A stretch of 64,000 nucleotides of DNA from positions 59,024,001 through 59,088,000 of the forward strand of contig OZ360231.1 of NCBI GenBank assembly GCA_977017645.1. Reading direction: 5' to 3'. The position numbers and the translations under genes are program-made. Below the pieces are notes generated by a model that saw only the letters and a list, made by a program, of their open reading frames with translations, was not told where the DNA came from and made no database searches. This document shows positions 12,174-60,022 of this stretch, piece after piece (position 1 is the stretch's first letter; each line of letters begins with the position of its first letter). The DNA is from Torpedo marmorata (Eukaryota).

Positions 12174-12354
12174 TTCGCTACCGGCCGGCAGTGCCCTCCG
12201 GTGGCAAGAAATGGGACCAACAAGGAAGCTGCGAGCATCATCCTCCAGGTCCCCAAACAAATGCAGCAAACGGGCACCAGTTCAGTACTTGATCCATCAC
12301 AGCAGTTCGGAGAAGAATCCAACCCACTTTTATCTTGACGGTCATCCTTGAATA

Positions 12355-17069: not shown

Positions 17070-17177
17070 TTACAGAAGGTCGTAATAAATATGAGGCTTC
17101 TTAGTTTCAGCACGGAACTGTTCCACCTTCAATCCAACCCGAAAAAGAATTGCTTCATCCCACCATTTACTCATAAT
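17070..17177 (-). CDS. Amidase last exon
   Basis: ccag acceptor; [35 protein letters not shown]. Confidence 0.92.
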   Translation of the reverse strand: MMSKWWDEAILFRVGLKVEQFRAETKKPHIYYDLL

Positions 17178-20100
17178 CTGGAAGGAAGGATTAGAATTAT
17201 TATTGTAACCGCATGATATTTTTTACTACAAAGACCCAAAGATACAATAACAGTAATTCAGCTTCAAGTAAAGTCAGATGGGAATACAGCAATGCAATCC
17301 AGTCACATACACCTCTTCTAACTACTGTATCAGAACAAAATATTGAGCTGATTCATGGCAAATGAAAAGCAAGCATCTCAGGGAAAGCAAATGACATTAC
17401 CTGAAGGTTAATGGGTAGACCGGAGGAGCTGTATCCAACAGGAACCACAAGAGAGGGGATTCCTGTCAAATTTGCAAGCTGCATATATCTGAGATGGGGA
17501 AAGAAAAAAAAAAAGAATCTGCATGTTAGAGGTAAAATTTATCATTATGTCAATAATGGATTTCATTTGCCTTTCTATTCATGGCATTACTCCAAATCCA
17601 ATTACTACTTCTTGATTCAAACATCAGAGCATAGACCTGGAATCTTTAGAGCAGAATAATGCCTATTTCCTACTGCACTGTATATGGTCTACGACTCTAC
17701 AACTTCACATACATACATGCTTTTAGAGCATTACTGAAGGGGCTCCATTCTCTGCATGCCCTCCATTCCCTCCACAACCCAGACACCAAGACAGAAAACC
17801 AACACATGGCTTCTACCATGTCAATCCTATTCAGGACTTTTTAAAGTGGCCTTTAAACAATTCTCAATCCATGTTAATGCATTACCCTCAATCTCCACTG
17901 CCATCAGATTCCTGAATGATCAATGAACCAAAGACACTGCCTTACTTTGACTTTTCATGCACTATTTTTTATTTATTTTTGTAAGGTGGTTTATATGAAT
18001 GTTTGCACTATGATGCTGCTGAAAAACAACAAACTTCATGACTTTTCATGACAATAAATTCTGATCTTTTGTGTAGTACTTTATTAAATGCCTTTCAACA
18101 ATCTCTACTAGTCCCCATTTATTCTGGTGGATAAATCTTCAAAATTTGTATTAGATCTGTCAAATATTATTTCCCCTGATGCCAACTCTCCCCTTTACAT
18201 TATGGTTTCCTCAAGCCCAATTTCCATTTCCTTAAAGATGGATTCCAACATTTTGCAAACAATAAATATAAGCCCAACTGCTCTGCAATTCCTTATTCTT
18301 CTTTGCACAGGCCTTTTAAAATAGCAGCACTAATTGTGTACCTTCCTTTACCCTGGCACTATTCAAGAACAGGGGATTTCAAAAATCATTATTATTGCAC
18401 ACAATTTCTGGAGGGCAATACGCAAAAGTGCTGGAGAAACTCAGCAGGTCATGCAGCATCTATGGGAGGTAAAGGGTAACCAACGTTTCGGACCAGTAGG
18501 ACAATAACTGATACAACAAAATTATTTGCTTGTTGTCTTCATTTCTCCCTCTTCCCCATTATAATTTCTTATCAATGTTTATTTGGATTCCACATTTATT
18601 TTTACTGCTCCCTTCCTTTTACTCAATTGTGGAAGCCCAGAATTATTGCTTTCTTGATCATTTATTCTCAATCTCTTGCTCATTTGTGTGTGCTTCTGAA
18701 ACAGACAAGTTTTTGCTAGACGTCATAGGTGGATGAACTGTAAAACAAATAAAAGGTGCAGGAGGTTCCACAGGAAGAGTTCAAGAGGCCGACGAGGAGG
18801 AGGTTTGGAAATGCAATAGTTACATTTGTTTTGAGGTGATTGGGTTGAACAAGATCAGGATGAGGTGGGTGTAGAGTGGATTGTGGAGGGTCATGTGTCC
18901 TCTCCGTCTGTAACCTGGTGGGAGTGTGGAGTGTAAGCAGTTACTGGTATCGGTAGTGTTAAGTCCGATGTGACTGGTTGCACTGTGTTGTGAGATTGAG
19001 AATACTTGCGGGTGTTATCCCTGTTGCAATTCCCTTACGGGTTTCAATAATGATTGTTTCTCCATTCAGCCTGTGTCCAGACCCACTATTCTTTGAGAGA
19101 AACACGATAGGCTGCAGACGCTGTGACTGTCGTAAAAACACCAAAAATTTTACCACTATTCTTTGAACCCACCGAACTTTTTCCTTCCCACACAACAGTG
19201 GACAATAGGGGATTCAAGGACAACAGAGAGGTGGGGACAGGGAGGGTGCTCGTGTGTGTATAAAGATAGAGAAATTTAGAGGCGGAAATAAATTATAGGA
19301 GGTCAGGGAAATCGAGTTGGAGATTGAAATCACTGGGCACATGAAGTCACAAAGTGCACCCTCTAGTTTGTCAATGAAAATATTGAGAGCAGATGAAACA
19401 AAAGGTACCAAGGTTAATAAATGTATTGGGAGAGGGGAGAAGTAGAGTGTGACCTCACTTTGTAAGGCAGAAAAAAAACTCCATATTTTCAGCTTTTAAA
19501 TATAACTAGCACTTTGTTTAATTGCAGCATGTTTCATTATTAACAGATCACTACTTTAAAAAATTGCCATCTTTTTTCCAATATTCCTACCCATTAATCC
19601 TTTTATTTACCTTACTGTGCTGAAAAGGGTATGAAGATCACAGCAACCAGTGCTGAAGTCCGATGGTTTAGAAGGTAGAGCAGTGTTGGGTATTGCTACA
19701 AATTGACAAAAATACCAAAATAAAACAAGATTCACAAAATTGCCAAAAATCTGTTAAATAAATGAAGACTACCTGCATAAAAATTGGTTGCAAATTTGCT
19801 GCCCGTTTTTAAACAAGATTTCCATCTGAAAGAGTTTTTACTTTCTTTTTTTAAAAAAAAAACACAGCACAGTAACAGGCCCTTCCGGCACATGAGCCCG
19901 TACCGCCCAATTAACCTACAACCCCTCTAAGCTATGAAGGGTGGGAGGAAACCAGAACACCTGGAAAAAAACTCTCGCGATCACGGGGAGAACGTACAAA
20001 CTCCTTACAGACAGCGCCAGATTCGAACCCTGGCGCTGTAACAGCGTCACACTAACCACTACACTAACCATGCCACTCCAAATTGCACATAATGCTGTTC

Positions 20101-23100
20101 TATGGAGTATTCATTCTGGAAATCAGATTAGTCACTTGTCTACGAATAGGATTACCAAGCAATCCTTTACAACAGACAATTCTGAAATTCAGCCATCATT
20201 TTAGATCTCAAACATGAAAGACTATAGTCTCAATTGATGGTCTAAATAGGATTGAAATAGTTTTGCAAATCAACAATCAGGCAAACCCTGCCCAGGAAGA
20301 ATTATTTAATGTTGTGAATTTATTTCTAGCCTCAGATATCTCACTTCAGGCAATGAAACTGCAAAGATACATCATTCAATATTTCATGTATTAATGAAAC
20401 AATCAACTAAATATCATTTTAAACTAGTTACTTAATTTCAATAGAATATTTTTCTAGTGGGGAAAATTACAAGGGTTGCAATAGAGGAAAAACCCTTGCC
20501 TTTATCACCAATACATTTTTAAACAATTTCTCACTGCTGCAAAGATTTGCTATAATCTAATCTTCTTATCAAATGTACTCTTGGGAGTTTACCATTTGAA
20601 TGGTTCATTTTCTCAAGCTCTCTTTTGAATCCAGACGTATTAACATTGGCCTTTTATTGAGATTGTGAATACAGCACCTTAAAGAATGCTGCAAGGAAGC
20701 TCTTGGATTCACTTAGAATACATTCTAACTCTAGAGATGACACATTTAATTTCTGCCTCCTGATGTTATCTAAATTTGGTGAAGGTTGTCAGAAAATCCC
20801 AAACATTTCCAGTTTCCTATTGATCATGATAAATATCCTCCATTAAGCTCTCTATGCCAGCTCAATGGATAATAGCAATTTATAAGTGCTGATTGTTGAC
20901 TTCAGGAAGGGAATGCCAGAGGTATATAATCCAGTGATCATTGGGGAAGAGGTTGAGCAAATTTAAGTTCTTGGGAGTCACTATCTCAGGAGGATCTTTC
21001 CTGGACCCAACGCACTAATGGCATCGTGAAGAAAGCACGTCAGTGCCTCTACTTCGTCAGGAGTTTGCGGAGGTTTGGTATTACAGAAACCCTGGCAAAT
21101 TTCTACAGATGTGGTGGAAAATGTGCTGACCAGCTGCATCACAGTCTGGTATAGAGACATCAATACCCCTGAGCGTAAAGCCCTGCAAAAGGTAGTGGAC
21201 ACAGCCCAGGACATCACAGGCAAAATCCTTCCCACTATTGAGAACATCTACAGGGAACGCTGCCGTCAGAGAGCAGCAGCAATCATCAAGGATCCACTCC
21301 ACCCAACAAATGCTCTGTTCTCGCTGCTGCCATCAGGAAAGAGGAATAGGTGCCACAAGACTTGCACCACCAGGTTCAGGAACAGCTGCTACCCCTCTAA
21401 CATTAGACTCCTCAACAACAAACTCAATCAGGGACTCATTTAAGGACTCTTACTTGTGCACTTTATTGATTTGTTTATTCTCTCTGCATTGCATTGTTTA
21501 CATTTGTTATCTGTTTACACTTATTTGTTTACATGTATACACTGTGTACATTTATTTTTTGCACTACCAATAAGTGGTAATTCTGCCTCGCCCACAGAAA
21601 AAAGAATCTCAGGGTTGTATGTGATGTCATGTATGTACTCTGACAATAAATCTGATGGACAAGGTTAGTTAAAGTTGCTTTTATCCACAATGTGTAATCC
21701 ACAGCAGGCCAAGAGGTGGAAATGGAAAATCGCAACCTTCCTCAACAAAATTCTACCCAATATACGGTATTTATTAGTTCAACTGGTTGGAAAGAACAGG
21801 TCCAATGGGTGCTAGCTTATAAATTCCAAGGCAGAGCATGAAGGTCAATCACAAATATAAATTAAAAACATTGATTTAAACATGACTTAATAGGGTCACT
21901 ATTTGATTTGCACATTGGTATTTAATTTTACTTTGGATTGGACAAGAGAATAGCCTTACCTGGTGTAATGATGCATTGCACATCCTTGAATATTTCTTTC
22001 AGGAAATGCATGGACCGTGATCGCTGCCGGGCAGCCTGTGAGAAGGAAAGCAGATAACCAAGGAAATGGCAGTCTTAAAGGTTCACCTTTTACTGGTGGA
22101 AAAACTGAGTTCAACAAAAAGATAGAGGACAAATGGAATAGGTGTGGAGAGATAAACAGGAAACACCCCACCCCTCAATCATATCACCCTTTCACCAAAT
22201 CTCAGATCCATCCTGAAAAGCAACACACACTGCATTTTTTTCGACTTGATTCTACAGCAGCACCATGAGAATGGTCTCATTCTGTGTTGTAATAAATATG
22301 AAAATATGCATGTAAAGATCACACATCATAGATATCAATCACTCCAAGGAAATCAGGTTGTTCTCAAGCCTGTGGGTCTCCAAGAGACTCCCAGCCACTG
22401 GGTCAGGAAGTGTGGTGATACCAGGACTTTAAGGATCAGATCATTGACTAGGAAGCTATCTGAAGTGAGTCCGAGATCTTCTGTGCATTTGACACACTGT
22501 GATCCTGCAAGGAATATCACCTGCTGTTTGGAGCACATGGCACATCTCACACCATAATGACCAAATTCAATCACATGGTGCACATAAGTATTACCCATCA
22601 AATTTCTTGACCCTTATGTTTTCTATTCTTTCAAAATAATTTCTCCATATTTTACCCCATCTACCTTAATAGAGCCATAGTTATACAGCCTCTGCCCACC
22701 TCAGCCCTGTCGACCAAGTTGTTTACTTGAGCTAGTTCCATTTGTCTGTATTTGGCCCACATCTCTCTAAACCTTTCCTATACATGTATTGTTCAACATC
22801 TTAAATGTTGTCATTGTATTTGCCTCTACAGCTTCCTCTGGCAGTTCATTCCACATAGCTACCACTCCTTTTGTGGAAAAGCTTGCTCCTCCACTCCTCT
22901 AAAGTTTTCCTCTCTCACCTTAAATCTAAGCCCTTTTATAGTTTTAGAGTCTTCTATCCTAGGGGGAAAAAAGACTGACTGTTTATCTTATCCATGCCTC
23001 TCATGATTTTACATACCTCCACAAGGTCACTCCCTCCATTTCCTACATTCCAGGGAAAAATGTCCAAGCCTATTCAGCCTCCCCTTGTAACTCAAGGCCT

Positions 23101-26100
23101 CCAGTCAGAGTGATGTCCTTTTCTGCCTCTTTCCAAACTGACATTTTCCTATAGCTGGGTGACTAGAACGGCACACAATACTTCCAGTGTACAGTTGTAA
23201 CATACTGTGCTCAATGTCCTGTCCCACGAGAGCAAGCATGCAAACAACTTCATCACCCTGTCTCCCCACGTTGTCATTTTCAGAGAACTATGTACTTGGA
23301 CCCCCTGTTCTGCATCATTCTCCAGCACCCTGCCTGTGTATGCCCTGTTCTGATTTAACCAACCAAAGTGCAACACTTCTCATTTGCCCACATTAAATTC
23401 TATTTGCCATTCTTTGGCCTACTTTTTCAGTTGTTCTAGATCCTGATGTAATCTTAGATAACCTTCTCCACTGTCCATGATATCATCAGTTTTGGTGTCA
23501 TCTGCAAACTTACTAACCATGCCACCCACATTTCATCCAGATCATTAACATAGATGACGAACAATAGTGGACCCAGCACCGATCCCTGCGATAAACTGGT
23601 GACAGGGACCCAATCTGGAAAAAACAACCTTCCACTACCATCCTACTAGCAACCCAAATTTGTTTCTAATTTGGCTAGTTCACCCTGGATCCCTTGTGAT
23701 CTAACCTTCCAGACTAGCTACCATGTAGGATCTTTTCAAAGGCCTTGCTAAAGTCCACACTACTATTCCTGTCAATACTCCTTTCAAGGCTCTTGGCTTT
23801 CTCCTGACATAATAGCCTAGTAACTTTGAAAAAAAATCTATTGTATTAACTGTCCTTTGAACAATCCATGCTAACATATTCTTTCCCAGTATTTTTTCTT
23901 CCTTCCCCTCAAGTTGTGGTGTTACATTTTGAAACCACTGAGACCATTCTAAATCAAAAAAATTTTGTCAGTTCAGCACTGTCGCTACAGCTCTTTACAA
24001 GACCGGATTGTACACCATCAGACAAGAGAGATTGGTCATCTTTTGTTGCAGCTACATTCATAATTGCCAAGCCCAGTGAACAGCTTGGCTGTGAACAGCT
24101 CCTGGATCACTGGAGAGTGGAGGGGGAAGCAAAATGTTCTTTGTACAAACTAGATTTATATTTTACTACATACCTGTATGTAATCAGAACTTGTGATTTT
24201 TGATGCCAAAGCTATAGTTAGACGAGTATCTAGATTCTGTAAGAAAAAAAAAATAGGATGGCATAGTTTGATATTCTTTGAAAAAAGCAAAATATATAAA
24301 ATTGGTATTGTATGATAGTCACATGTTTATGGAAAACCTAGTCGAGTCATAATACACTGTACCAGAGTATTAATGAGAGAACCAGATGCTATTATCTCTA
24401 CATTTTCAAACAGCAGCATGGCAAGTTTTAGTTGGGAACTGACAGCTTCTGATGTGTAAATCAAAGCTATTGGGAAAAATTCAAACAGGATCACCTGTGT
24501 CTGGAGAACATTTATATAAACAAAGTTTATATTTACTTCTCAAAGATTCTCCTTTACAATACTTCTTCAAAAATAGACATACCGAAAACACAGACAGATG
24601 TTCGCATCCTTTTACTACCAGCACTCATTTGTGATTTTCACTCCGTTTTCAGACTGGAAAGCGTCCACTAATTCTACTACACGAGACAAATGGTGTGAAT
24701 CCAGCTGGCTGAACAGTCTGGAGCTGCTGGCTTTCAGCTCTTGAATCTTCAGTAAGTCTCCAACTTCTGTGCTTGCTCTGCTGAATGCAGAATTTGGAGA
24801 CTAACCAAGTGACAGATGCAGCCGCATCAGTCCTCAAGCTCTGCTGATGGAAGTGACTGAGGGATTCCAGCTCTGTAAAGACTTCATTAAAACCTGACGC
24901 AAAACAATTTTCAATTATTTGTAAATTTCTTGGGTGCTTTCTATGAACCACATTTAAAAAAAAATTCTTTAGTAATTATTTTAGTTCAATCCTTTGGCTT
25001 ATACACATCTTTGAAATGATTTTAAAATGTTACCGAAAGTGCCAAAGCCTGTTAGGGATGTTCCAGGGAGAGAGTCCCTGGACCAAGTCACCCAACACCT
25101 AATCCTGGATGAGGCCTCATTCTCCAACTCCTGGTGTGAGGAGCAGTGAGGCTAGCCTTCCTCCAACTGGGCTGGAACCAGCAAAATCTGATCACTGAAT
25201 ATGCCATTACCACAAGCAGATCACAGATCCTGCTAACAAGCCAAAGATGTTAAATTGTGGCATAATATAGTACAATTTACTTGATAAGACTTTCAAAGAA
25301 AATTTACAGGAAGGATCCATTCTTGTCTGCTTTCCTTGGGATCATATCCACAGATGTTTAAAAAAATCATCTGGGCTGTGGAATGTGCTGGCAAAAGTGA
25401 AAGAATGAGTTGGATAGAGTGAGCTGAATAACTCCCAACAAAATCTGTTATAGACACTTGGGAAAGAAGACAGACAAAGCTTTACAAGTACAATGTGTAT
25501 ACACTATGAAAGACAGTACAATAGCCAAGCATTGCACAGCAGACACAGGCAAGACAATCATACAACTCTGGAAGCAGGTCATTTTCTAATATCATGGTGA
25601 AAATCAGCTCCCAAGTTTCTAATTTTGGAAAAGTAAAAAATATCAACTTTTACGACTTAGTTCAAGTGATTAATTATACTGGACAATGAAGATTTTGCTT
25701 CTTGAACACTTTTGGGTGTATTTTATGGATTTTGGGCTGGTAATCATGAAAATCACCTTTTTTAGATATAATCTATTTTTGTGATTTCCCGTCATTTTAA
25801 GTCTACTTCAAGCGTACAAATCCATGAAGTGCAACATGTCACTGAAAATTCATTTTCTGCATTCGCACTTGGACTTCTTCCCTGCTGATCTTGGTGCAGT
25901 CAGTGACGAACATGGTGAAAGGTTTCACCAGGACATTGCGACCATGGAAAAGTGGTATCAGGGCAACTGGCTGACTATTGTTGGACACTGACATGAGAGG
26001 CATCAGATGCGGAGTACAAATGAAAATCAGTGGCAAAACATTTTTAGGTCAGTTGAACTAACACAATGTCAGCATCATTATGCGATTAAACATGCCAAAT

Positions 26101-29100
26101 TCAATAAAAGTTAATTTAATGTTTAAAAAAAATGTTGTCCAGTGATATCAGCAATTCAACTCGGTATATTCAGGAATGGAAATATTTTTGCCATTTTGGA
26201 AAATGGAAAGTTTTTTCCCCCCACTATGATACGAATAAATCAAGATGTTTTTCCCTGAGGGATTGAAAAATAAGGAATGTTTTTGTTAAATTTCGGGATA
26301 GATTTCAAAACACTAGTCCTCATTTGATAAAAATCACTAGAAATAACATGCTGATTTAGAACTTGCTTGCTCCTGGATTACAGCCAGCTACAAAGGTTTC
26401 CATTCAACACCTGCTGACAGACCACAGAGCAATTAAAGACATCCATGAAATGTAAAAAAAAACCTTTGAAACAGTTAATCAGTACCAGGTTAACTAATAA
26501 AAGGGCATTCTTTCCACTAAAGTATTCAAGTTGGTATTTTGAACCAAAGCAGATTACTTACCATTTTGTCATATTGATTATTAAAATCCATGTTCAGGGA
26601 CTGTCGTATCTCACTCATAAGAGAAATAAAGTGAGCAGTCTGGACTTCCTCCAACTCTGGGATATGCACATCTACCATTGTTGCACCCAAATTTGTTAGG
26701 CGCTGTACCGCTGCATTAAAGTGAAACAGAATTAACAATAACAACTTGGTTAGTACAGAATTAATGCCAGTGCATTTTGCTTTAGGCCTATTTGCAAACA
26801 CATTTTCACTTCTGACGATAGGAAGTTGCATGCTGGGAGGCTTCCAGCTCGAAGCACATTTATGAGGACACAGAGACAACTCAAGACAATGTGAGCTGTT
26901 CCCCCTTCTGTAAATGCAGCATTTCTGCAAGTTGCCCATTAGCAATTGGATGACATCTCAAACGACACAAAGATTTGACAGCTATTTTTTTTTTTTTTTA
27001 ATTAACAAATTGCAGTAATAACTATGTACTCAGTTGGGCTAGCCTCACAACTCCCTTCATTAAATCTCTTCAATTTTATTTTATATTAAGTTTTATTTAA
27101 ATTTATTTAAATGTAGACATACAGCACGGTAACAGGCCATTTCAGCCCACGAGTCTGTGCTGCCAAATTTACACCCAATTAACCTACACCCCGGTACGTT
27201 TTGATTGGTGGGAGGAAACTGGAGCCCCCGGGGAAAACCCACGCAGACAAGGGGAGAACTTACCAACTCCTTACAGACAGCGCGAGATTCGAACCCCGGT
27301 CCCGATCACTGGCACTGTTTCTTAAAATAGTGTGCATCCCACACAATCTTGCCTATCAGAAAATCAATCAAGGAACCACACAGGGTAGAGGTGATTTATT
27401 TGCCCAGTTAACACAACAAATGGGAGAGTGTGGACTGTGCCCTTCTGCTCCCTCCCCACCAACACCCCCTTCAACTTTGGTTCAAGTTGGTCTCTCTTTA
27501 CCCCACCATTCTTACCTTCTCATCAGATTCCAGGCTTTGTCTTCTAAACACCCACACCACCATGTACAACTCATCTTCCTCCACTTGACCCCTTTCTTTT
27601 ACTTGCCCTCTCTCCCTTTGTCTGGCATCTGCCAATCTACTGCCTCAATCCGTCAGGATTCACTATCCCACATGGGGCCCGTTTCACTATTCCACCCCTC
27701 CCACCCTGTCCTCCAGCTTCTCATACATATTCCTATTCTCAGTAAAGGGTTTCAGCTCAAGACCAATCTTTTTCTCCCACTGACGTTGCTTAACCCATCA
27801 AGTTTTTCCAGCAGATTGTGTTCAGCTTCAGATTCTATCATCTGCCGTCGTCCGTGTGTACTGCTCTCTGAGGCGAGGACTGGCATGAACAGCATGAATG
27901 GGAGGTTGATCTTGTGATCTACTTTTTCCCCCTCTGCTAATCTTTGGAATTGCAAATTTACCAGTCAAAGATCAACCATTAATCCGAAAACTAGATGGAA
28001 CGCATCTCGTGTCCAAATGCACCCATTGAAATTCTCAAGAGTACACAACAAGAATGAATCTTTGGAAAGTTGGAGGCATTTCTACAGAAGGCCAGAGTCA
28101 AAGAGAACTAATGTCATAGGTTCAGATGGAGGGGATAAGATGAGATGCTAGCTTTTCTCCTGTCACTCCCACCCACAAAGGCAAAGAGACCTGCTGGTAA
28201 TATTATAAAATAATATTCTCCAATTTTATGAGGGTCCAGTTTGTAGGCTGAGGCTCCCTTGCTATCAATCCCATCATATATGGCAATAGATTTAAAAAAT
28301 ATTTGTACCTGTCTGGCAAACGTCCAAAACTTCAGAATCACAGTCCTGTTAAAAATTAAAGGGGAATTTCAGAATTCTAAAGTAGAATACAACAAACAAT
28401 AGAAACCATTGCAAAATGGGAATCAGGGCACAGGTATTGCAAGGAGAGGTCAGGGCCAAAGAGATAATGGCTACAGTGAGCGCCTGACTGCAATGGAAGA
28501 GCGGCAAACTGAGATCGAGCTGGAATCACTGGACTGGTAATGTCCGTCTCAGAGAGGTGGGAGACATATCTGGGCATATCTTAGTTTGTTACAGGAGGCA
28601 CCTCCAACACATTCCAAAACTTTACCCAGATTAACATCCAGTAGGCCCAGCGGAACGCAAAGCTATGAAGTTAGATGCATGTTCCACCCTGCGCTTCCAA
28701 AACCCCAAACTGCAGCACCAAAGCTTACTAATCCCAGAAGTGTTCAAATAATTTCCAACACTGCTCATTGAAATTGTAAGCATGGTCAGAACATTTTTCT
28801 CCAGGTAATTCCAGGCAACTGTTCCAATATTCCCTACTTTAATTGGGTTCAGTGGCCTTGTGTTTAAGGTTTCATTCTGCAGAGAGCAGCTTACCTCTCC
28901 GCTTCACCCCAAATTCCTGGGTGCTACCCCAAGACAGGAGTCTCACCTGCCAGACTCATCAAATTAAAAACAGCCAAAAGTTACAAACAAGGATGACTAT
29001 GGCCTTGGAAGATGTCAGGACATTACAGGGAAACAGAACCACAGCCCTCCGTACTGCAGGCCTTCTTGTACGCTCTTGTAGTGTGGCACTGCTCAGCCTC

Positions 29101-47100: not shown

Positions 47101-50100
47101 CAATAAGGCAAATGCTCACAGAACCAATCAACTCACTCCATGGACGGATGTGGGCTGTGTACTGTGCGCCACAGCCATAACATAGGAAGGATGCAATTAA
47201 GCCAGAAATAGTGCAGCAAAGATTCACTGGATTGTTACATAAACTGAAGGGGTTGAGTTGCAAGGAGAGATTAACTTAGCTGAGGTGGTTTTCCCTAAAG
47301 CAAAGGAGGCTGAGGGTGAACTTAAAGTCTATACAATTATGAAGTGCATAGATAGAGTAGATAGTCACAGGCTATTTCCCAGGGTAGGGTGTCTAAAACT
47401 AGAGGGCATCAGAATAAGACGAGAGGGAAGAGATTGAATAGTGGATCAGTAGGGCACGGTTTTCCACAGAGGATAGGGGGATACATGAAACAAGCTGCGA
47501 GAGGATGGAGGCAGGTACATGGATAGGGGCTAAAAGTAGACAAATACAGGTATGATTAGAGCAGACAGGTTGGGACAAGGGGCAAAGTTCCAAGCTGTAT
47601 AACTCCACAAATCTCTGAGACAGCAGACGAGGAAGTTACAAAACTGAAGTGCAATAACTGGAATGTCACAATTCCATTAAAAGTCTGAAATTATTAATTC
47701 CTGTCAAACAAAATGAAATCGTTTTCATATAGTAGCAGAAACTGAAGTGCAGAAGCTTTCGGTTCTAGCACACTTGTGGCCACAATGTCTTCAGATCCAT
47801 TAATGTTCCATCATTTCAAATACTCAACTTTTAAGTACAAATGTTATCATAATTTATGTCACATTCCACGATCTTATGGCCCTCTGTTGCAAGGCCTTTT
47901 TGCTTCTTTTGAGTTTTACAGAACAGAAACAGACCACTCAGCCCATCTTTTCCATGCCAACCAAGTTGTCTACCTAAACTAGTGCCCATGTTCAGACCAT
48001 ACCTTTCTGATCCTTTCTTCCCCACATGCCAGTCTAAATGTCTTTTAAATGTTGCAACAGTACCACTTCCTTCTCATGTGACCGTCTGGATGCTCCTCTC
48101 AACACCTTCCATTCTTCCCTGGTCCCAACTTCATTAATTGCCATTAAACATATTCCTACACTCTCAGGGACTGTTGGGAACTACATACATAGTTTATTCC
48201 CCACCTTCTGAATGTCTGAGGTTGCCCCCTTCCTTCTCCTCCAGTGTCCCACCTTTCTAGTCACTTTCCTCATCTCTTTAGCTTTTGTCTCAGGAACCAA
48301 GAACATGGATCAATCAATGGCACTGATCAGAAACTAAACTTCATCTTATTCCCAGGTATTCACATTCTAGTCCATCTTCAGTCAAACAGTATTATACTTA
48401 CAACTTTAATTTCCTCCTTAATGCACACAGGAATTCCATCCAGTGGGGAAAGAGGTGTATTAGCTCTGTACCGAGCAGTGGAGGCTTCCGCCATCTAAAT
48501 ATCATAACAGAATGCCAGTGGTAAGCAGAGAATAATAGTGCTGTCAAAAAATGTTGAATTATTGAAATGTCTTGCTAAAAGTTGTTTTGAAAGAAATGCA
48601 GAAATTGGGACCATTTCAACTTGAAGATCTGAAACTGAACTTTTCAGTAACAAAACATTTACTCATCATATGGAGACAGTTAAAATGTGAAGGACAGCGT
48701 GCAAATTAACTAAACACAGGGCTAACAGATGGTAAGGAATGAGTCAGCTGGTTGTCACTAGGACTGCTATAAATAGCCAAACTAAAACTGCAGATCAAAC
48801 AATTCTGTATAGAATCAACAACTCTAGTATTGTCTACTTGAAAACTTATTTCAATTTTTTTTGTAACATAATGCTTCCGTCGTTTTCCCAGTCATCATCA
48901 CAACCAATTAGTTCACTACATTTAATCTGTTAGCTCTGTATATAGCCACCATTCGCAACATCATCCTTAGAGTTAAATTCTACGTAGCAAACAGCAGTAT
49001 AGTATCACTATACAAAAATGACACCATAAGCTTGGTTTGCAAGGTTCCTCAATTTGACCATTTGATTTCCTCCTAACATCTCAGCACCCATCCATTAACT
49101 GAAGGTGTATTCGACCAACTGTGAAGAGAAATTGATCGTCTATGTCTTGCATGAGCAATCATTCTGTCAATAGTGTCACTAACAAGCATAGCAGGTATTC
49201 GTTACAGAAAACGTGAACTAGAACAGTTGTGCACCAAATACTAAGTAGAATTTACTGTCAATGCATATTCTTACAGAGAAGTCTGCATTACCTTTGGAGA
49301 ATATGGGAAGATTTTTGTTGTCAGTAAGGAGCTACCTTTCTTTTGGGCCTCACAGAATGCTCTCATTTCTCTATTGCTTTTGGCTGTCTTACAAATAATA
49401 TGTTGGATGACAGGTTGGAATTAAGCAAATCCTTGGCAAGCCACTGATAAAGTACAATGGTGCCAATCTGCTGTTCGGCTTCTTTATTTCTGAAGTAAAC
49501 AATCTAGCCAGAAAGACCAGTCATCTGTTTACAAGATCATAGCAACTGTGAGAAGGTCACAAACTACAAAAGAACATCTTACCAGCATTTCTTTCCCCAC
49601 TCTGCACTAACCATCCCACATAGACTTGTTCTGCCAATGTGATATATGCAAGTGCAAACCCAAGTGCAAATCTTTGCTTTTCACATAGAAAATGTTGCTA
49701 TGTAATGGTACTTCCAGTTCACTGGAAGTGCCAGCTGCAGAATGCACATGATTATAGCCTGGGTTACCAGGGGCTGCATAATTATCCAGTCAATCATTTT
49801 AATGAATGGAAAAACAAAAGCTCGAGATCTACAATTTCCAAACACCTACTAACAACTCCACCTTTTGCCATTCCTCATTTTCAAAACCACATTAAGCATA
49901 TAGGAACAGACTGGCAATGCAAAAAATGCAGGCCAGTGGGAAAATATTATAGGTGGGCTTCAGCTGTTATTTTAATATGATTGTCTCATATGGAAAAGTT
50001 ACTACAAACAAAAGCAACTGCAGCAACAGTTGGATTCTGACATGAAGAAAATAAGAGTTTTGAATCTGAATAGGCAAATTTACACAGATCAGAAATGTCT

Positions 50101-53100
50101 TCCTCATCCACAGATATTTGGTGGACTCCCACATTCCTTGAAATGCCTGCACTGGCTCAGAAAACTTTGATTTATTTTTCCAAGTGTTGTTGGAAGGACA
50201 TCATCTGGCTTGACTGCATTATCATACCAGACTGCAATAGCCTGGCAATAGCCATTATTAGGAATTAAATACGTTCTCCCAGTGTCTGCGTGGGTTTTCT
50301 CCGGGGGCTCCGCTTTCCTCCCACCGTTCAAAAACGTACCGGGGTGTACGTTAATGGGGTGTAAAGTGGGCGGCATGGACTCAATAGCCTAAACACGACT
50401 GGGATTGTCTGATCTCGGAAGCTAAGCAGGCACAGGACTGGTCAGTACTTGGAGGGGAGACCGCCAAGGAACACCAGGTGCTGTAGGTTTCTGTGAGGAG
50501 CGCTGAACAAAGTAGCGACTCTCTGTCTGCCTTACTTACGTTAGACAAAAATTAAAGAATTTCATGTATGTTAAATTCTAAATGTAGTATTACGTGACAA
50601 TAATGGAACCTTTACCTTTACTCGTGGGCCGAAATGGCCTGTTACCGTGCTGTATGTCTAAAACCTTTTTAAAAAGCACTTAAAATGAGGCATTGCAAGG
50701 TAAAGGTCACTGAAAAGGACATTTCACAAGCTCAGTTCTTGCCTCATGATCCTGCACCCACCCTTGCCCCTCCACAGGCAAGTGAGCAAAAAGTGAAAAC
50801 CCAGAGACAAAACTTCAGAACATTGGGAAGGAATGATGCAGAGAACAAGCAGCAAAAAGAAATCCAAACATTCCACTGAAAAAATACGAAAGATCAGATA
50901 CTCATAGGGACATAAATTAATTTTGATCATTTATTTTTGCCAAGACTAATGAATTTAGGAAACACCAAAATAATTTTTTTTTCCTAATTTCAGAATTTCA
51001 CCCTGCAACACAGTCATTGAATAACTTGTTAACCAGGATTGAAATAAAAAATGTACAACTTGAATGGTTACATTCTACCCATTAAAAGCTCCCTCCAAAA
51101 CATCACAGGCATCACAATTGAATTGAAAATATTGCCAACCTTCATTATCAGCTCACTTTCATATTGTACAATAGCTCGCAACGGAGCAGTTGTTTGATCA
51201 TCATCTTTCAGGGCTCTGATCACATTCTTCGCCACTTGGATTGGAGTAGTTTTACCAGCCCTATACAAGCACAAATTGATTTCTTTAAATATACGATGAT
51301 GGCTCATCAACTGATTAGTCAAAAGAATACCATGAACATTAGTGACAAAAGTCAATCATTGCCCTTCTTCTAGTGATACAAGTATCCAGGGAAGTTTTAA
51401 TCCATTTATAACTCTTGAAAGTAAAAATAACATGGGGTATAAATGGGCATCTATGGAGAAAGCAAAATCTAAATATTTTTCTTTCAAAGTTGTTAAAATT
51501 TGGGGTTGAGGTTCAGACCCATTTTCATCTTCACAGAATATTTGATACAGTCTAGAAAATGTCTCCATCTCAGTGATGAAGCTGCAAATAATTCAGCTTT
51601 TGTGCAGTTGTTGAATCCGAAATGTATTGTGTAAATCTGCAGAAAGGATAGCTCCGCCAACTGAAGCTGCCTCAGGCACTTCAGCCTGAGCTCCCCAACA
51701 CCCACCCATTCCATATTATAAAAGGTTAACCATACAATTTCATGCTGACCCTGAAATAAATGTGACTTTTTAAATAATTAATGGAATTTGTTACAGAAAC
51801 CCTCTAATCTCCCCAAAGCTAAGATTTCATTCAGAACCTGTAAACCTTATCATTAACTGTTCACTATAAATGACAAACTATTATCAGAAACATATCCTGT
51901 TAATTTTCATATCCTTGCTAAACACTTGGAATATTTTTGCCAGCAAAGTGACAAAAAGTGCTTGTGACATTTACCAACGTGATTAAATGACAAGCATTTA
52001 CATGCATCATCCTTAAAAGAATAGTCTTACTTTCCCTCCATCTGCCCTTCCCTCCATCAACACTTCAGAATTGGGGATCTGCTCATAACTCCTCAAGAAT
52101 TGACATCAGCAGTAAATGGAGAACATATCATCGTGGGTCGATTAGTGGTACAGAATGTGGTAGGACAACTCTCTCTGTTTGCTTTCAAAGAGCTGTCTTG
52201 ATTGCTCCAGTCACTCCGCTCTACTTTAATCTTGACCAAAACCCCCATGAGCTGCCAGAAAAAAAAACTCAAGCCTGCCATTTTTGGCACCCCACAATTT
52301 CTATCTCTTTATGTTGACTCTCTTTTATGATGGGTTAGGACATTGAGCAAGTAGTAATGAATGTACAAGTACTTCATGTCCACAGTAGCTTATCATCACT
52401 ACTTCCAAAAGGAATAATTCCACGCATGTCCAACTTCTTGGAGTTGGTAAATGTGGTTGGGGTAGGGTTGTGATTGAAATGGCACTAGTCCTGCCTGTTA
52501 GCCTTTTACTTGGATAGTCTGAATAGCAAAGGCATTAAGGAAATAATGAAATCACTTCTTGTACTTGTATACATACTTATATTCTTCGAGGAAATCAGAA
52601 ATGCTTTTAAAGTTGAATCCAAGCCTCTCTTCTGTAACTCTGAAAAAAATATATACAAAATTGTTACTTTTAGCGAAGTAGAACCACTTTAACTAAACAC
52701 ACACAACACTTAGATTAAGTAACACATCATTTCTGACTCAGAGTATTAATCAACAAAGTTAACACTTATTTTTAACGTTTATCATGACACAGGTTGAACG
52801 ACATCAGGTCTATGGTTCCTTTCTAATGGCCCCCAGTGTTTGAATCCTTCCTATATATCCCACTAGTTAGAAAAGACTGGTTTGAAAGATGTGGTTAGAC
52901 TTTAATTGAAATCAATCTCAGAACATCAGTACTCATTTCTCATTCCTGGGTGCCCTAAGAAATTAGTGGCAGGCTCTCCAATTTATTAAAATTTTCTGGT
53001 GTACATTTTCCAGGACTGGCTTAGTACTTTAATATTCTGCTGGCCATTGGCTGCTCTGTTGCATTGGTTCAGCATGTCTGGAGGCAACCAGTGTCAGGAG

Positions 53101-56100
53101 GAAAGTTAGGGTGCACATCCATAAAAACAGAGAGGAATTAAATTGATAACATCCACAGTAAGAGGACTGGCTTATGTCAGCTTTTACAATGAATCAGTGT
53201 TGATAACGACAAAACATTAATGACCTTATTCAAAAATATTGGCAGTACAGAGCAGAAAGCGAGAAATAAGAGGGTTTGGTAAAAATGCTTTCTCTATTAT
53301 TTGCAAACATGTGATGTATTTGCACATGCGTGTTGAATTCAATTTCCGATATTCAGTCCCACAGTATCAGGTTACAAAAGTGGTATTCAATGCCAAGTAC
53401 AACAAAAGGGCATACTTCTCTCCTGCTGCGTGTGAATAACAAAGGGATGTGACGCCCTCGCCATGGTTTTGAACATTAGAAATGCAGAAATTTACCACTG
53501 CACGACTTGCGTAAAGGAAATCAACAGCTTCAAAAATGTGTACAAAATAATCAAATGAATCAAACCAGAATAGGACTTTCATAGTAAATCCCAGGACCCT
53601 AGAGTGTTGTGGAACAGAATGATCTGGGGATACAGGCACACTGTTTCCTAGAAAGTGACAACTCAGGTAGACAGGGTGGTGAAGATGGCGCTTGTCCTCA
53701 TTGGCTGGGGTATCGAATACAAAAGTGGGGTTTCTATAATACAGCTGAACAAGGCATTGGTGAGACTATACTTGGGAGTACCATGTGCAGTCCTGGTTGA
53801 CCAGCTAACAGAAGGATATCAATAAGTTGTTAGGGGTACAGAGGAGATTCACCAGGGTGTCGCCAGAACCTGAGGGCTTGAATTAGAGGGAGGTTGGATA
53901 GGCTGGGTTTTTATTCCCTGGAATGTAGGAGACTGAGGGGGTGACCTTATAAAGGTTTATAAAATCATGAGGGGCATGGATGAAATCTTCTTCCCAGGGT
54001 AGACTATTCGAGGACCTGAGGCCAGAGGTTCAAGGTGAAACGGGAAAGATTTACGAGGAACCAAATGGGGAAACTTTTTCACTCAGAGGTTAGTCCATAG
54101 CTGCCAGTAGAAACTGTACAATTACAATGTTCAAAAGGCATTTGGACAGATATGTGGATAGGAAGGGATTATAAAGATTTGGACCAAATGCAAACAAATG
54201 GGACTAACCCAGAATGCAAACTTGATTGGCATGGACAAATTTGGCCAAGGAATATTCCCTGCTGTATGGCTCTGTGAATAGAATAGGAATAAACTTTCAA
54301 AGAGATACAAGGTATGGTAAAGCATGGAGAAATATAAATGATTCCTATTTTGATCAAAGTGACTTAATCAGAAACTTCTCCTCCTTGTTTTTGTCCACCT
54401 TATTTCTTTTTGAACACCCAGAACTGTTTCACTCTTGAGACTACAGCTGTGTGACAAGATTTCTCCCAACTCAGATACTGTGGGCAGTCTACCGGGATTT
54501 AAATCAAGAGCCTTTGATCAACTGCACTACCCAGTACTAGAATGACACTTGTTCCATATCGAATAAATTACCTTGGTGCCAGCTAATATTATCCAGAGTT
54601 GGCAAAGCAAATTTTCAGTAAAAATTAAGATTCATATATTCTTAAATGTTTAATTGCAAACTACTCATCTTAATAAGTTAATGGTGCAATATTACTTCGT
54701 ACAATATGATCAATTTTCTAGAACCTATCAAATTAACTTACACTGAAACAAATTAAATTTGGCAAAAAAATCCAATTTAAGATATTCAGGGTAGTCTACA
54801 ATGTCAATAACTGAATAATATTAACAGGAAACATAATTTGCAGGTTTGCAAATCATTCACTTAATGATAATAGACTGGTATGACAGATACCTCATCATCC
54901 AAGCAAGAAATTAATAGTCATCCAACTGTTTTAGATCTGCATGCACATTTGAAACACTGGAAACAAATTCACCTTTTAAAACCATCAGTAACTAAAACTT
55001 CACCAATACTTGCCGCCCACCTCAACTGCAGGAGTTCGTTCAGAACGGTGTTACTGTTATCGTGCCTTGGCGGCTCATCACTATGCTCAGGATTAACAAC
55101 AGGAATGAATATAGGGTCTTCTGGAATGACCATGTTTTGCAGCAAAGTAAAATTTGACATTCTAGAATAAAAAACGCACAAATTTTAAGCAAATATTAAT
55201 CAGGTTCATTAAAAAAAAATCCTCCTTGACATCGCCATTCAATGAAAACTGTTCCCAGGCAAAACGTTAAGGAGATGAATGGTCCCTAATCTATTATCAC
55301 TCATTTTGTCCAATAAACTATCATTTGTGACTTAATAAACAATGACTCAGAGTTGCCCTTTCTGTTTCAGCAGTTTAAAATACAAGCAATTTTCATTAAT
55401 TCTCTGTACGCAAGCTAATACAAATATAGATTTATTCACACTTCACAAGTTTAACATTGTTATCAAGTGCAAATTGAGTGGCACGACTTGGGACAGATTC
55501 TCACTCCAGAGAGTCTCATTCACCATTTTCTAACAGGTTGAGCCAGGGTACTTGACATGGCAGCATGAACCACAAACTGTTTGTACTAGCACTAATGCTG
55601 GGAGTGCAACGTCACAAAAATATAAGTTGATCCAGGATACCCCCTCAACAGAGCATGGTGGGTACTGTCAATCTTAATGCCAAAACAGATTAGGAGGACC
55701 CTTGCATTTATTGTTGGAGGAAAGGCAACTTAGTGGTTACAGAACCTCTCGGGTGACAATTAGTGAAATGTAGATTAATAATTTACATGCAAGCCTTGCT
55801 AACCCAGCCAAAGACACTGGCTGTTGCACATTTTGGAAGATATTGGAGGGTCACAACAAACCTCATTTAAGCATACTTGATACCATCAGCTGCAGTGGAA
55901 ATAGACTTTCGAAAACTTCTACAGGTGGAGAGCATTCTGGCTGGTTGCATCACTGCCTGGTGTGGAGGCGCCAACTCTCAGGACAAGAATAAACTCCAGA
56001 GGGTTGTTAACTCGGCCTGCGACATCACAGGCACCAGACCTCACTCCATCGAGGGCATCTACATGAGGCGGTGTCTTAAAAAAAGCAGCCTCTATCCTCA

Positions 56101-59100: not shown

Positions 59101-60022
59101 AAGAGGTACACTTCAGATAGCTCCTTCCAGATTTTTGGGTTTAACTATATTTCAACCCTGGCTGCCTTGATTTCCCCCCCCCCCCAAAGTCACAAAAGAC
59201 TTTTCATGAAAGTCTGCAGACATTGTGACTGTAGTAAAAATGCACAGAAATGCTGGAGGAACTCAGAAGGTCTCACAGCGTCCATAGGAGGTAAAGATAC
59301 ATAACCGACGATTCGGGCCCGAGAAGCTGCGAGACCTGCTGAGTTCCGCCAGCATTTCAGTGTTTTTACTAGCAACATTGTACATTCTAATTTATCATTG
59401 ACATTCAGTGAACACTGCCAAATTCCTGCACTTAAATAAAAGTAAATTTGTTACTGAAAATAAAAGCTTGTCATTTCAGTTTGTACTTAAAAATGTTAGA
59501 AAATCAGAATTGCGACAAAACAAACTCTAGAACTTAAAATGTCATCTTTTAGAAGTCAAACTCATATAGCTATTAATTATAGTTACAATTTTTTATATAA
59601 ATAACAATAACTTTTCACTTTTTCCTTGATAATCCAGTCCCATTCCTTCAGCATTTTGCTTTTTATACCCGATTAGATAGCAAATTCACTCTTCTAACAT
59701 TTACTTCCTGGTTCACAATCTGCACTGTTCATTAACAATTCAATTTAAATTGGGTGAGATGGTACGCAGCTGCTTCCCTGCTTCCATATATCTAATTGCC
59801 CTAAAGAGGAAAGCCACAGCAGTCAGATTTCCATCTTTCAGAAAACTGATATTACGAGCCGCTTACGGACACTGCCCTGTCCATTATATCCAATCAATGG
59901 AACGGGTAATTCGACAGCTAATTCTGGACCAGTGAATAATGGCCACACGGTCTGTATTGAAGGATTAATGTACCAATACTGTACCTTATGATCAGTGGAA
60001 GCAAAATTAGTTCCCCAAAGAT
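17070..60022 (-). CDS. Amidase-signature family hydrolase, plant-FAAH-like; 18 exons recovered, 5' end missing
   Basis: The 18 GT-AG exons listed below splice in frame to 1671 nt (556 aa plus stop). Motifs [11 protein letters not shown] (Lys), [14 protein letters not shown] (cis-Ser) and [21 protein letters not shown] (Ser nucleophile) are present. C-terminus [10 protein letters not shown]. Confidence 0.93.
17401..17488 (-). CDS. Amidase exon
   Basis: (R)[29 protein letters not shown]; ctcag/gtaatg; phase 2 to 0. Confidence 0.95.
17780..18066 (+). mobile_element. Rex1-type LINE 3' tail
   Basis: ctgccatcagattcctgaatgatcaatgaaccaaagacactgcc...catgacaataaattctga, matching 56210-56385. Confidence 0.7.
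19611..19695 (-). CDS. Amidase exon
   Basis: (A)[27 protein letters not shown](R); tgtag/gtaaat; phase 1 to 2. Confidence 0.88.
19861..20075 (-). mobile_element. tRNA-SINE
   Basis: Reverse complement of the SINE head, core and tail seen at 1556/3929. Confidence 0.8.
20885..21655 (+). mobile_element. Rex1/Babar LINE 3' fragment
   Basis: [55 protein letters not shown] plus the 3' tail. Confidence 0.9.
21960..22035 (-). CDS. Amidase exon
   Basis: [25 protein letters not shown]; cacag/gtaagg; phase 0 to 1. Confidence 0.93.
22670..23780 (-). mobile_element. Decayed CR1 ORF2 3' fragment
   Basis: [27 protein letters not shown] remnants and the CR1 3' UTR. Confidence 0.85.
24174..24236 (-). CDS. 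Amidase exon
   Basis: [21 protein letters not shown]; ttacag/gtatgt; phase 0 to 0. Confidence 0.92.
25677..26144 (+). mobile_element. Chapaev3-type (CMC) DNA transposon, internally deleted
   Basis: TIRs (T)ACTGGACAA...TTGTCCAGTG; encodes [41 protein letters not shown] and, after a deletion, ADYCWTL. Confidence 0.85.
26562..26710 (-). CDS. Amidase exon
   Basis: (A)[49 protein letters not shown]; tgcag/gtaagt. Confidence 0.94.
27100..27320 (-). mobile_element. tRNA-SINE
   Basis: Reverse-complement SINE including B-box gggttcgaatc and the V-like core. Confidence 0.8.
28309..28345 (-). CDS. Amidase micro-exon (37 nt)
   Basis: [12 protein letters not shown]; aacag/gtacaa; phase 0 to 1 is exactly what the flanking exons require. 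Confidence 0.85.
29487..29575 (-). CDS. Amidase exon
   Basis: (S)[29 protein letters not shown]; ttcag/gtaaag; phase 1 to 0. Confidence 0.9.
30562..32945 (+). mobile_element. L1 internal fragment (ORF1 coiled-coil/RRM/CTD, inter-ORF, ORF2 endonuclease start)
   Basis: [33 protein letters not shown] and ORF2 [26 protein letters not shown]. Flanked by a 22-bp direct repeat. Confidence 0.92.
31003..31910 (+). mobile_element. Young 5'-truncated CR1 inserted in L1 ORF1
   Basis: Uninterrupted 270-aa ORF 31013-31825 ([16 protein letters not shown]...[10 protein letters not shown]...[14 protein letters not shown]) and a (gttatat)n tail. Confidence 0.95.
34270..35015 (+). mobile_element. Highly decayed CR1 ORF2 (endonuclease/tether) fragment
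   Basis: IMGHFNY..IDW-like and [19 protein letters not shown] remnants. Confidence 0.55.
35109..35962 (+). mobile_element. Solo LTR (family A, copy 2)
   Basis: TGTTA...TAACA with a perfect 4-bp TSD CAAT; inserted in a Rex1-type tail (catgacaat|aaat). Confidence 0.92.
36568..36645 (-). CDS. Amidase exon
   Basis: (G)[25 protein letters not shown]; tgcag/gtaagt; phase 1 to 1. Confidence 0.94.
37764..37826 (-). CDS. Amidase exon
   Basis: (V)[20 protein letters not shown](G); tttag/gtaaga; phase 1 to 1. Confidence 0.94.
39360..39443 (-). CDS. Amidase exon with the catalytic Ser nucleophile
   Basis: (G)[27 protein letters not shown]; taaag/gtatta. Confidence 0.96.
40672..41272 (-). mobile_element. 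CR1 3' fragment
   Basis: ORF 40779-41042: MKGIDK...[16 protein letters not shown]; apparent ATAG TSD. Confidence 0.92.
41437..41522 (-). CDS. Amidase exon with the GGSSSGS signature
   Basis: (R)[28 protein letters not shown](G); tccag/gtgagc. Confidence 0.96.
41975..42720 (+). mobile_element. Decayed CR1 containing a fold-back Penelope terminus (about 42460-42650)
   Basis: CR1 remnants (KCEVLQF.., LERV.KRFT). Inverted arms ggtcacgcagcagccatagaaagtaaagggtaatcaacatttc / gaaatgttggttaccctttacttcctatggatgctgcgtgacc. Confidence 0.7.
43773..44166. mobile_element. Composite hAT-type MITE
   Basis: TIR (CAG)TGGTTTTCAAACT with an 8-bp TSD [t/c]tttaaat; two inverted subunits (43773-43922, 44035-44166) around a spacer. 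Confidence 0.85.
44287..44447 (-). CDS. Amidase exon
   Basis: [53 protein letters not shown](R); tttag/gtgaag. Confidence 0.96.
47170..47610 (+). mobile_element. Decayed CR1 3' fragment
   Basis: RKDAIK..VQQRFT..RRLR..IDRVD remnants. Confidence 0.7.
48402..48494 (-). CDS. Amidase exon with the catalytic Lys
   Basis: [31 protein letters not shown]; tttag/gtaagt; phase 0 to 0. Confidence 0.96.
50270..50665 (+). mobile_element. tRNA/V-SINE body split by a 5S-derived SINE
   Basis: SINE core at 50270-50382 resumes at 50620 (actcgtgggccgaaatggcctgttaccgtgctg). Confidence 0.8.
50383..50619 (+). mobile_element. 5S rRNA-derived SINE (SINE3-type)
   Basis: gtctgatctcggaagctaagcagg...agtacttggaggggagaccgcc..gaacaccaggtgctgtagg is 5S-like, followed by a retroelement tail ending in (accttt)n; ACTC TSD. 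Confidence 0.88.
51140..51260 (-). CDS. Amidase exon
   Basis: (K)[40 protein letters not shown]; tatag/gttggc; phase 2 to 0. Confidence 0.93.
52577..52639 (-). CDS. Amidase exon
   Basis: (R)[20 protein letters not shown](K); ttttcag/gtatgt; phase 2 to 2. Confidence 0.9.
53595..54280 (+). mobile_element. Decayed CR1 3' fragment
   Basis: [34 protein letters not shown] remnants and the 3' UTR. Confidence 0.8.
54973..55161 (-). CDS. Amidase exon (N-terminal region)
   Basis: (R)[25 protein letters not shown]...DGFK(R); tctag/gtgaat; [10 protein letters not shown] resembles plant FAAH VIPEEPMFRP. Confidence 0.9.
55908..56387 (+). mobile_element. Rex1/Babar LINE 3' fragment
   Basis: [33 protein letters not shown] plus the tail; very similar to 3660-3928. 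Confidence 0.9.
57260..58320 (-). mobile_element. Solo LTR (family C, partly similar to family A)
   Basis: TG...CA termini with a perfect ATTT TSD, inserted in a CR1 remnant. The minus strand shares the acacacac...tagtgggg.tt...aataaa layout with family A. Confidence 0.85.
58880..59372. mobile_element. Penelope terminal fragments (direct at 58880-59075, fold-back at 59205-59372)
   Basis: Matches the 9380-9502 terminus; the second piece is an inverted dimer of the terminus. Confidence 0.8.
59985..60022 (-). CDS. Amidase micro-exon (38 nt), the most 5' exon found
   Basis: [12 protein letters not shown](R); ttttcag/gtacag; phase 2 matches the next exon; similar to plant FAAH LIGSLIVDYL. Confidence 0.78.

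Follow-up and report, generated by a model that had tools for sequence, protein, structure and literature searches.

A vertebrate gene of the Arabidopsis-type fatty acid amide hydrolase subfamily in Torpedo marmorata, encoding a probable membrane-bound hydrolase

The closest described relatives of the gene reported here are the plant fatty acid amide hydrolases (FAAHs), in particular AtFAAH of Arabidopsis (PDB 6DHV, 6DII, 8EWW, 8EY1), a group I enzyme. An N-terminal membrane cap marks FAAHs of the plant type (PMC7033180), and the characterised members of the family, from Arabidopsis, moss, Medicago and Dictyostelium, hydrolyse N-acylethanolamines (NAEs) (PMC7033180, PMC10169808, PMC3412733). 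In Medicago, group I enzymes favour long-chain NAEs and N-acyl homoserine lactones (AHLs) and group II enzymes favour alkamides and aromatic amides; the group II enzymes of legumes have Tyr at three positions of the acyl channel (PMC10169808). Dictyostelium FAAH, which hydrolyses anandamide, is nearer to the Arabidopsis enzyme (32%) than to mammalian FAAH (20%) (PMC3412733). Two cnidarian sequences have been grouped with the non-animal FAAH clade, a placement treated as apart from higher animals, with the other animals in a separate clade; of the 7 chordate rows in Table S3 of that study, those seen are from four mammals, human and zebrafish (PMC7033180). Here we describe a gene in a 64,000-nucleotide stretch of the Torpedo marmorata genome (assembly GCA_977017645.1, contig OZ360231.1, positions 59,024,001 to 59,088,000), hereafter the window, in whose numbering all coordinates are given. 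By its sequence and modelled fold, the product is a member of the Arabidopsis-type FAAH subfamily of the amidase-signature superfamily, and it is probably a membrane-bound long-chain fatty acid amide hydrolase, an ancient animal member of that subfamily. The term plant-type is a mere label for where the family was first studied.

The gene lies on the minus strand from 60022 to 17070 and consists of 18 exons joined across 17 introns of 223-6992 nt, which were delimited by mapping six orthologs onto the window and then reading the splice sites. All 17 introns are GT-AG with matching phases, just as an earlier note on this DNA had claimed, and the full Lys/cis-Ser/Ser triad that it reported is present in the spliced translation, encoded at 48419-48417 (Lys), 41470-41468 (cis-Ser) and 39405-39403 (nucleophile Ser). 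The spliced coding sequence comes to 1623 nt, that is, 540 amino acids and a single stop at the end (TAA, 17072-17070), and the previous count of 556 codons has to be corrected. All seven motifs quoted from the window were found again in this translation, and those quoted from Arabidopsis, also seven, can be followed in the alignment with PDB 6DHV. Relatives were first found with one exon piece, 44447-44289, as query; it matched 33 proteins among 46 candidates (sharks, rays, birds, lizards), and its best PDB match was AtFAAH. Aligned without gaps, the 540-residue window protein is 92.4% identical to the ortholog of Narcine, 86.3% to that of Pristis and 61.3% to that of a crane. A bird ortholog gave 13 tblastn matches above 35 bits in the window (best 93.6), against none above 35 bits in 20 of 20 shuffled windows (best 29.6), so that the amidase signal is not a product of chance.

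The earlier note had also called the gene intact, which holds for the open frame and the triad but not for the 5' end. The window protein corresponds, ungapped, to residues 67-606 of the 606-residue Pristis ortholog, such that the first 66 or so residues must be encoded outside the window. The coding part of the first exon in the window is preceded by an acceptor site and an in-frame stop, and five ortholog N-termini searched against both strands of 60023-64000 gave no credible match. The gene is 5'-incomplete in the window; its earlier exons are beyond 64000, on the far side of a long terminal repeat (LTR) retrotransposon-like element at 61752-64000. At the other end, candidate polyA signals start at 16997 and 16701. 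An Rfam scan of the window returned no match. The gene is real and conserved in vertebrates, and it is apparently uncharacterised.

In place of the window protein, full-length comparisons used the Pristis ortholog (P0003), with which it shares 86% identity. Against PDB sequences it scored 364 bits with AtFAAH over residues 52-606, 175 bits with GatA, and 66-70 bits with FAAH1, where the similarity is confined to the signature region (residues 205-366). A family profile of 109 sequences gave 663 bits for AtFAAH, 329 for GatA and 150 for FAAH1. The amidase domain PF01425 was recognised in exon 6 alone (30.8 bits, cut-off 27) and in the Pristis ortholog (305 bits); the GatA model TIGR00132 stayed at 244 bits against a cut-off of 481, and none of the 25 NCBIfam models examined, out of 26, passed its cut-off. 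The AlphaFold model of the Pristis ortholog (predicted local distance difference test, pLDDT, 94.9) superposes on AtFAAH with TM scores of 0.87-0.90 (0.89 over nearly the whole chain) and Z of 50-51 over 568-576 residues, at 35-36% identity. Since this alignment starts at residue 27 and those of the next-best folds start only at about residue 135, the N-terminal cap is common to the Pristis protein and AtFAAH. Both cap and access channel were located on the Pristis ortholog; the window encodes the second half of the cap only. With the window protein itself, plant FAAHs share 34-38% identity and members from Chloroflexota about 43%. Bit scores, profile and fold agree with the earlier assignment to the Arabidopsis FAAH subfamily and not to FAAH1 or GatA/QRSL1. 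Clusters of look-alike proteins contained amidases only, with Chordata or Streptophyta as the commonest taxa, and a plasmid search matched 724 records, of which the 30 listed are ordinary amidases, 26-32% identical. The family's own cluster (157 members, commonest taxon Chordata) has automatically been called 'putative SRSF protein kinase 1', which is clearly a misannotation.

The exons, all on the minus strand, can be read against AtFAAH. Exon 1 in the window (59985-60022, aa 1-12, Pristis 67-79) is part of the membrane-binding cap, and exon 2 (55021-55161, aa 13-59) holds the end of the cap helix, the family VIPEDP motif and a variable linker. After exon 3 (52577-52639, aa 60-80), the amidase domain begins in exon 4 (51140-51260, aa 81-121). 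The catalytic Lys (AtFAAH K205) is in exon 5 (48402-48494, aa 122-152), the NMHELG motif, with Val in place of the usual Lys (K248), in exon 6 (44287-44447, aa 153-205), the GGSSSGS motif with the cis-Ser (S281) in exon 7 (41437-41522, aa 206-234), and the oxyanion loop with the nucleophile Ser (S305) in exon 8 (39360-39443, aa 235-262). Exon 9 (37764-37826, aa 263-283) holds an invariant Tyr at the head-group (cytosolic access) channel, where AtFAAH has G335 and group II has Trp; exons 10 (36568-36645, aa 284-309), 11 (29487-29575, aa 310-339) and 12 (28309-28345, aa 340-351) follow. Acyl-channel helices are encoded in exon 13 (26562-26710, aa 352-401), with the invariant His (H441), and in exon 14 (24174-24236, aa 402-422; AtFAAH S472-F479). 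Beyond exon 15 (21960-22035, aa 423-447), exon 16 (19611-19695, aa 448-475), among the least conserved exons in comparison with birds (29%), holds the equivalent of the 'squeeze and lock' helix of AtFAAH 531-537. The frame closes with exon 17 (17401-17488, aa 476-505) and the last coding exon, 18 (17070-17177, aa 506-540 and TAA), which has the family C-terminal KP..YYD.L motif.

Pocket residues named in PMC7033180 and PMC10169808 were mapped via the AtFAAH alignments, and the mapping held up on legume group II sequences, where Val, Trp and three Tyr appear as they should. In an alignment of 42 jawed-vertebrate sequences, 140 of 540 columns are invariant, and the triad with the following Ser and Arg is kept in all 42. 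At the three acyl-channel positions occupied by Tyr in legume group II, the window protein has Phe, Ala and Leu, and none of the 42 vertebrates has Tyr, so that the three-Tyr channel of group II is absent from all of them. The position of F476 is small (Ala in 36, Gly in 4, Ser in 2 of 42), and the vertebrate acyl channel would thus be like that of long-chain group I, or wider. H441 is kept and, as in AtFAAH, there is no triple Tyr; in contrast, the open polar head-group channel of group I (Thr300, Gly335, Glu338) gives way to Ser/Thr, Tyr and Val. The AtFAAH residues G335, E338, F476 and K248 are replaced in the animal proteins by Tyr, Val, Ala and Val, respectively. In common with plant group II (MtFAAH2a, legumes) they have an aromatic side chain at the head-group channel, Tyr instead of the Trp of group II, in a similar PL(S/N)-aromatic motif, but the vertebrate protein is without the three acyl-channel Tyr and without Val for T300, and the identity is about 35%.

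To the triad, membrane-binding cap, C-terminal tail and length of about 607 residues that they have in common with AtFAAH, the animal orthologs add a predicted N-terminal signal anchor. A hydrophobic N-terminal segment with a more positive C-side was found in 47 of 48 full-length animal sequences, with a 17-residue mean hydropathy of 1.7-3.5, and the same score was at most 1.0 in 10 plant and at most 1.6 in 5 bacterial sequences; the model of the Pristis ortholog has a helix at 2-18. Basic residues after such a segment point, by the positive-inside rule, to an N-out/C-in topology, and on these grounds an N-out/C-in signal anchor with a cytosolic catalytic domain is predicted from the orthologs. 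An N-terminal transmembrane anchor is also found in FAAH1, which differs in that its membrane cap consists of C-terminal helices 18-19 and is not N-terminal (PMC7033180). Dictyostelium FAAH, set beside the vertebrate gene by description only, differs in having no predicted transmembrane segment (PMC3412733).

The main tree was built from 44 chosen rows, 38 of the ingroup and 6 outgroup bacterial amidases, a choice that excludes FAAH1, FAAH2, QRSL1, AtFAAH and Dictyostelium FAAH. The family formed one clade against the outgroup (100/100), a clade that takes in bacteria and sequences without a taxon name as well, and in a larger tree of 106 ingroup and 20 outgroup rows its support was 0.92. Animals (12 named rows and 1 other) make up one clade and plants another, each with 100/100, and the animal clade was recovered in both FastTree runs (161 and 126 rows). 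The base of the family tree has no resolved order, and the rows nearest to the animals are sequences without a taxon name; animals and plants as one clade were not rejected by the approximately unbiased test (p-AU 0.287), nor was such sisterhood found. The window protein is sister to that of Narcine (100/99) and the tree largely tracks vertebrate phylogeny. The 67 vertebrate database models compared contain 12 large insertions, in models from tetrapods; 8 of these coincide with intron positions of the window, where 15.7% would be expected to, and they cover 7 introns, which indicates intron positions common to birds, lizard and frog. Deletion ends in tetrapod models, a weaker test that includes three similar passerine models, lie near a window intron in 8 of 20 cases, against 13.7% expected. 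The monophyletic animal branch and the introns at shared positions argue for vertical inheritance within animals, and by this evidence the branch, from sponge to birds, is ancient and vertically inherited.

Horizontal transfer from plants or bacteria into vertebrates was considered and ruled out, the animal clade holding a sponge and cnidarians and following phylogeny. The broader idea that the gene belongs to FAAH1, FAAH2 or QRSL1 in divergent form, that it is a pseudogene, or that it came recently from a plant or bacterium by transfer or contamination could draw on the bird entries named 'FAAH hydrolase', on bacterial members outscoring plant ones, on the unresolved deep branching and on the 5' end missing from the window; it is very improbable and largely refuted, since the scores and fold described above set the protein apart from FAAH1 and GatA, the frame is open across 17 introns with ungapped 92% identity to Narcine, the tree largely follows the vertebrates, intron positions are held in common with birds, lizard and frog, and the flanking gene is the vertebrate NDUFB4. 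Nine over-long database models scanned for synteny included none fused to a neighbouring gene. An expanded clade within the animal branch near the sponge (P0124, P0128, P0138, P0156, P0157, P0168, P0206) is without the NMHE motif.

The distribution was read from the best 120 of 6802 matches, obtained in a word-seeded and length-limited search with 8000 candidates scored. Its vertebrates are sharks, rays, coelacanth, salamanders, caecilians, the tailed frog, turtles, squamates, crocodilians, birds and hagfish, and its non-vertebrates are amphioxus, a hemichordate, echinoderms, cnidarians, a sponge and Chloroflexota bacteria. The description of a plant-type FAAH in a jawed vertebrate was therefore too narrow, as the family, extending from hagfish to sponge and to bacteria, is special neither to plants nor to jawed vertebrates; the conserved vertebrate lineage without a human member stands, to the extent that no mammal is named among the 120. 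No ray-finned fish, tunicate or protostome is named there either, and no FAAH2-named, mammalian or teleost protein occurs in this list, on which the earlier separation from FAAH2 holds by inference. The list extends as far as bacteria at 475 bits; the gene appears to have been lost in mammals and probably in teleosts. The only frog sequence found, that of Ascaphus (P0079), sits on a long branch, and its model strays from the family towards the C-terminus; as the 120 best matches name no further anuran, the gene in frogs may be in decay or wrongly modelled. The 50% representatives, searched exhaustively, gave at least 150 matches, and a query with one of them retrieved named plant FAAHs. The vertebrate gene is labelled 'uncharacterized' or 'fatty acid amide hydrolase-like' in the databases, and 'FAAH hydrolase' in bird entries.

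The invariant triad, the group-I-like acyl channel and the predicted N-terminal anchor are what suggest a long-chain amide hydrolase. The signal anchor would fix the enzyme to an internal membrane, with the N-terminus luminal and the catalytic domain cytosolic, and a long-chain fatty acid amide would leave the bilayer and enter through the channel of the N-terminal cap. The Ser equivalent to S305, activated by the Lys through the cis-Ser, would then form the acyl-enzyme, the amine would exit past the invariant Tyr, and the fatty acid would go back into the bilayer. The substrates are likely to be long-chain acylamides of endogenous origin, among them NAEs, primary amides such as oleamide and other N-acyl amides, with small or apolar head groups preferred; NAE turnover is a reasonable inference from homology. 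With FAAH1 and FAAH2 the protein shares the amidase-signature fold and the triad, and probably part of the substrates, and in non-mammalian vertebrates it would act in parallel with them.

Several points weigh against this proposal. No enzyme that has been characterised exceeds 35-36% identity, and substrate changes come easily to amidase-signature enzymes. The head-group channel is unlike that of AtFAAH, G335 being replaced by Tyr in 42 of 42 jawed vertebrates and E338 by Val in 40 of 42, and its gate resembles that of group II, where short substrates, aromatic ones and alkamides are preferred. Acyl-channel positions vary among vertebrates, the one of I532 showing nine residue types. The anchor lies outside the window and is taken from orthologs, and an N-x-T/S sequon at residue 82, kept in the examined sharks, rays and sauropsids but not in amphibians, coelacanth or hagfish, is a weak hint against a strictly cytosolic face. 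As for the loss, the absence from mammals and teleosts rests on a single word-seeded search of 8000 candidates, and an intact 613-residue member from a non-tetrapod bony vertebrate (P0057), at most 63% identical to named sequences and placed near coelacanth outside the tetrapods (87/45), could come from a lungfish or a ray-finned fish, which matters for the question of retention in ray-finned fishes.

The group II likeness of the gate bears on another possibility, that the main job of the enzyme is to clear foreign acylamides (bacterial AHLs, dietary alkamides, aryl amides) inside barrier or liver cells and not in mucus. AtFAAH hydrolyses long-chain AHLs (PMC10169808) and has been crystallised with 3-oxo-C12-HSL (PDB 8EY1), MtFAAH2a favours alkamides and aryl-homoserine lactones, and in simulations of MtFAAH2a the Trp that matches the vertebrate Tyr touches the lactone ring (PMC10169808); moreover, the gene is dispensable in some lineages. 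We nevertheless consider this role unlikely, as any acylamide hydrolase of broad specificity may show AHL hydrolysis in vitro as a secondary activity and no conserved quorum-sensing or lipid context was seen beside bacterial members at 12 loci. Secretion is excluded by the predicted anchor topology, and the quorum quenching at mucosal surfaces imagined in the earlier note found no support, an N-out/C-in anchor speaking against a secreted enzyme.

A further possibility is that the animal branch has moved to another endogenous amide, such as an N-acyl amino acid, a taurine conjugate or a short-chain or aromatic amide, with little NAE or endocannabinoid turnover. Changes specific to animals occur around the active site: Lys248 is replaced by Val, Ile, Leu or Ala in 42 of 42 jawed vertebrates, one or two residues are inserted after the NMHELG loop, and the acidic E338 is lost. 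In addition, FAAH1 and FAAH2 are presumably retained in the vertebrates that carry the gene, and its selection alongside them for 400+ Myr suggests a non-redundant substrate. Such a shift seems quite unlikely to us, given that the open hydrophobic acyl channel and the membrane cap are retained and that all characterised members cited here accept NAEs. The proposal of a long-chain acylamide hydrolase can be extended to a third, plant-type, membrane-anchored FAAH of non-mammalian vertebrates that evades FAAH1-selective inhibitors, handles endogenous lipid amides together with microbial or dietary acylamides (AHLs) inside gut, skin or gill cells, and persisted from sponges through to birds while mammals and teleosts lost it; as a whole, we hold this extension to be doubtful.

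A literature description of the vertebrate lineage was not found, in a coverage that leaves out most subscription journals and the orthology supplements of genome papers, and the lineage is not mentioned in the available part of PMC7924210. The branch called overlooked in the earlier note may be so, although databases already predict the gene. If NAE hydrolysis is true, birds, reptiles, amphibians and sharks own a catabolic arm without counterpart in human, mouse and probably zebrafish. Since the moss member of the family is not effectively inhibited by URB597 (PMC7033180), inhibitor studies in non-mammalian vertebrates could miss this activity. The idea of a split between plant and animal FAAHs is also corrected, the plant type having been present in the first animals and surviving in many vertebrates; mammals and teleosts, where the gene appears lost, are the lineages on which endocannabinoid biology was built. 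There is also an annotation trap, in that the bird entries 'FAAH hydrolase' are of the Arabidopsis-type family and not FAAH1.

Bacterial amidases of Chloroflexota, Myxococcota, SAR324 and Neomarinimicrobiota share the cap and tail with the vertebrate protein at 34-44% identity, and Trp stands at the head-group gate in all three aligned; they differ in being without the signal anchor, in having Lys at K248 and in lacking a conserved gene neighbourhood. A genome scan gave 80 loci; the first 12, from Chloroflexota, Myxococcota, SAR324 and other groups, were taken as candidate members of the family, and 20 of the rest served as outgroup. Among 79 of the 81 open reading frames (ORFs) scanned around the 12 loci, no neighbour was shared beyond related genome pairs. 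In two related loci (L004:5001-6410, L005:5001-6716) the amidase gene stands after those for 2-oxoacid dehydrogenase E2/E3 and for a response regulator-kinase, and in two others (L003, L008) it follows a nitroreductase. One locus (L012), which branches off basally and is long-branched, may lie outside the family.

The neighbour of the amidase gene in the window is NDUFB4, a complete gene on the same strand (7063-12064, minus) with three exons at 12064-11888, about 7682-7533 and about 7122-7063. It lies 5 kb downstream and serves as a synteny anchor, being no part of the enzyme; human NDUFB4 presumably has no amidase neighbour. A CpG island at about 11500-12500 coincides with NDUFB4, and directly upstream of its start stands a GCGCATGC element, which we take to resemble an NRF1 site. 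Downstream of NDUFB4, at 6000-6750, a CpG-rich patch with an observed/expected ratio of up to 0.96 and two GCGCATGCG elements could be a promoter or a repeat. The LTR-retrotransposon-like element at 61752-64000 is on the plus strand, antisense within the amidase intron that precedes the first exon in the window, with a gag-like ORF, an aspartyl protease and a reverse transcriptase; as it is CpG-rich, it is possibly young. Remnants of long interspersed nuclear elements (LINEs) occupy 30429-32977 on the plus strand in the largest amidase intron (6992 nt), with a coiled-coil ORF1-like frame, an endonuclease frame and, between them, another LINE-like frame of 279 residues. Finally, a dispersed repeat links 1907-2843 and 35108-35968, about 33 kb apart, through four ungapped pieces that are 74-96% identical.

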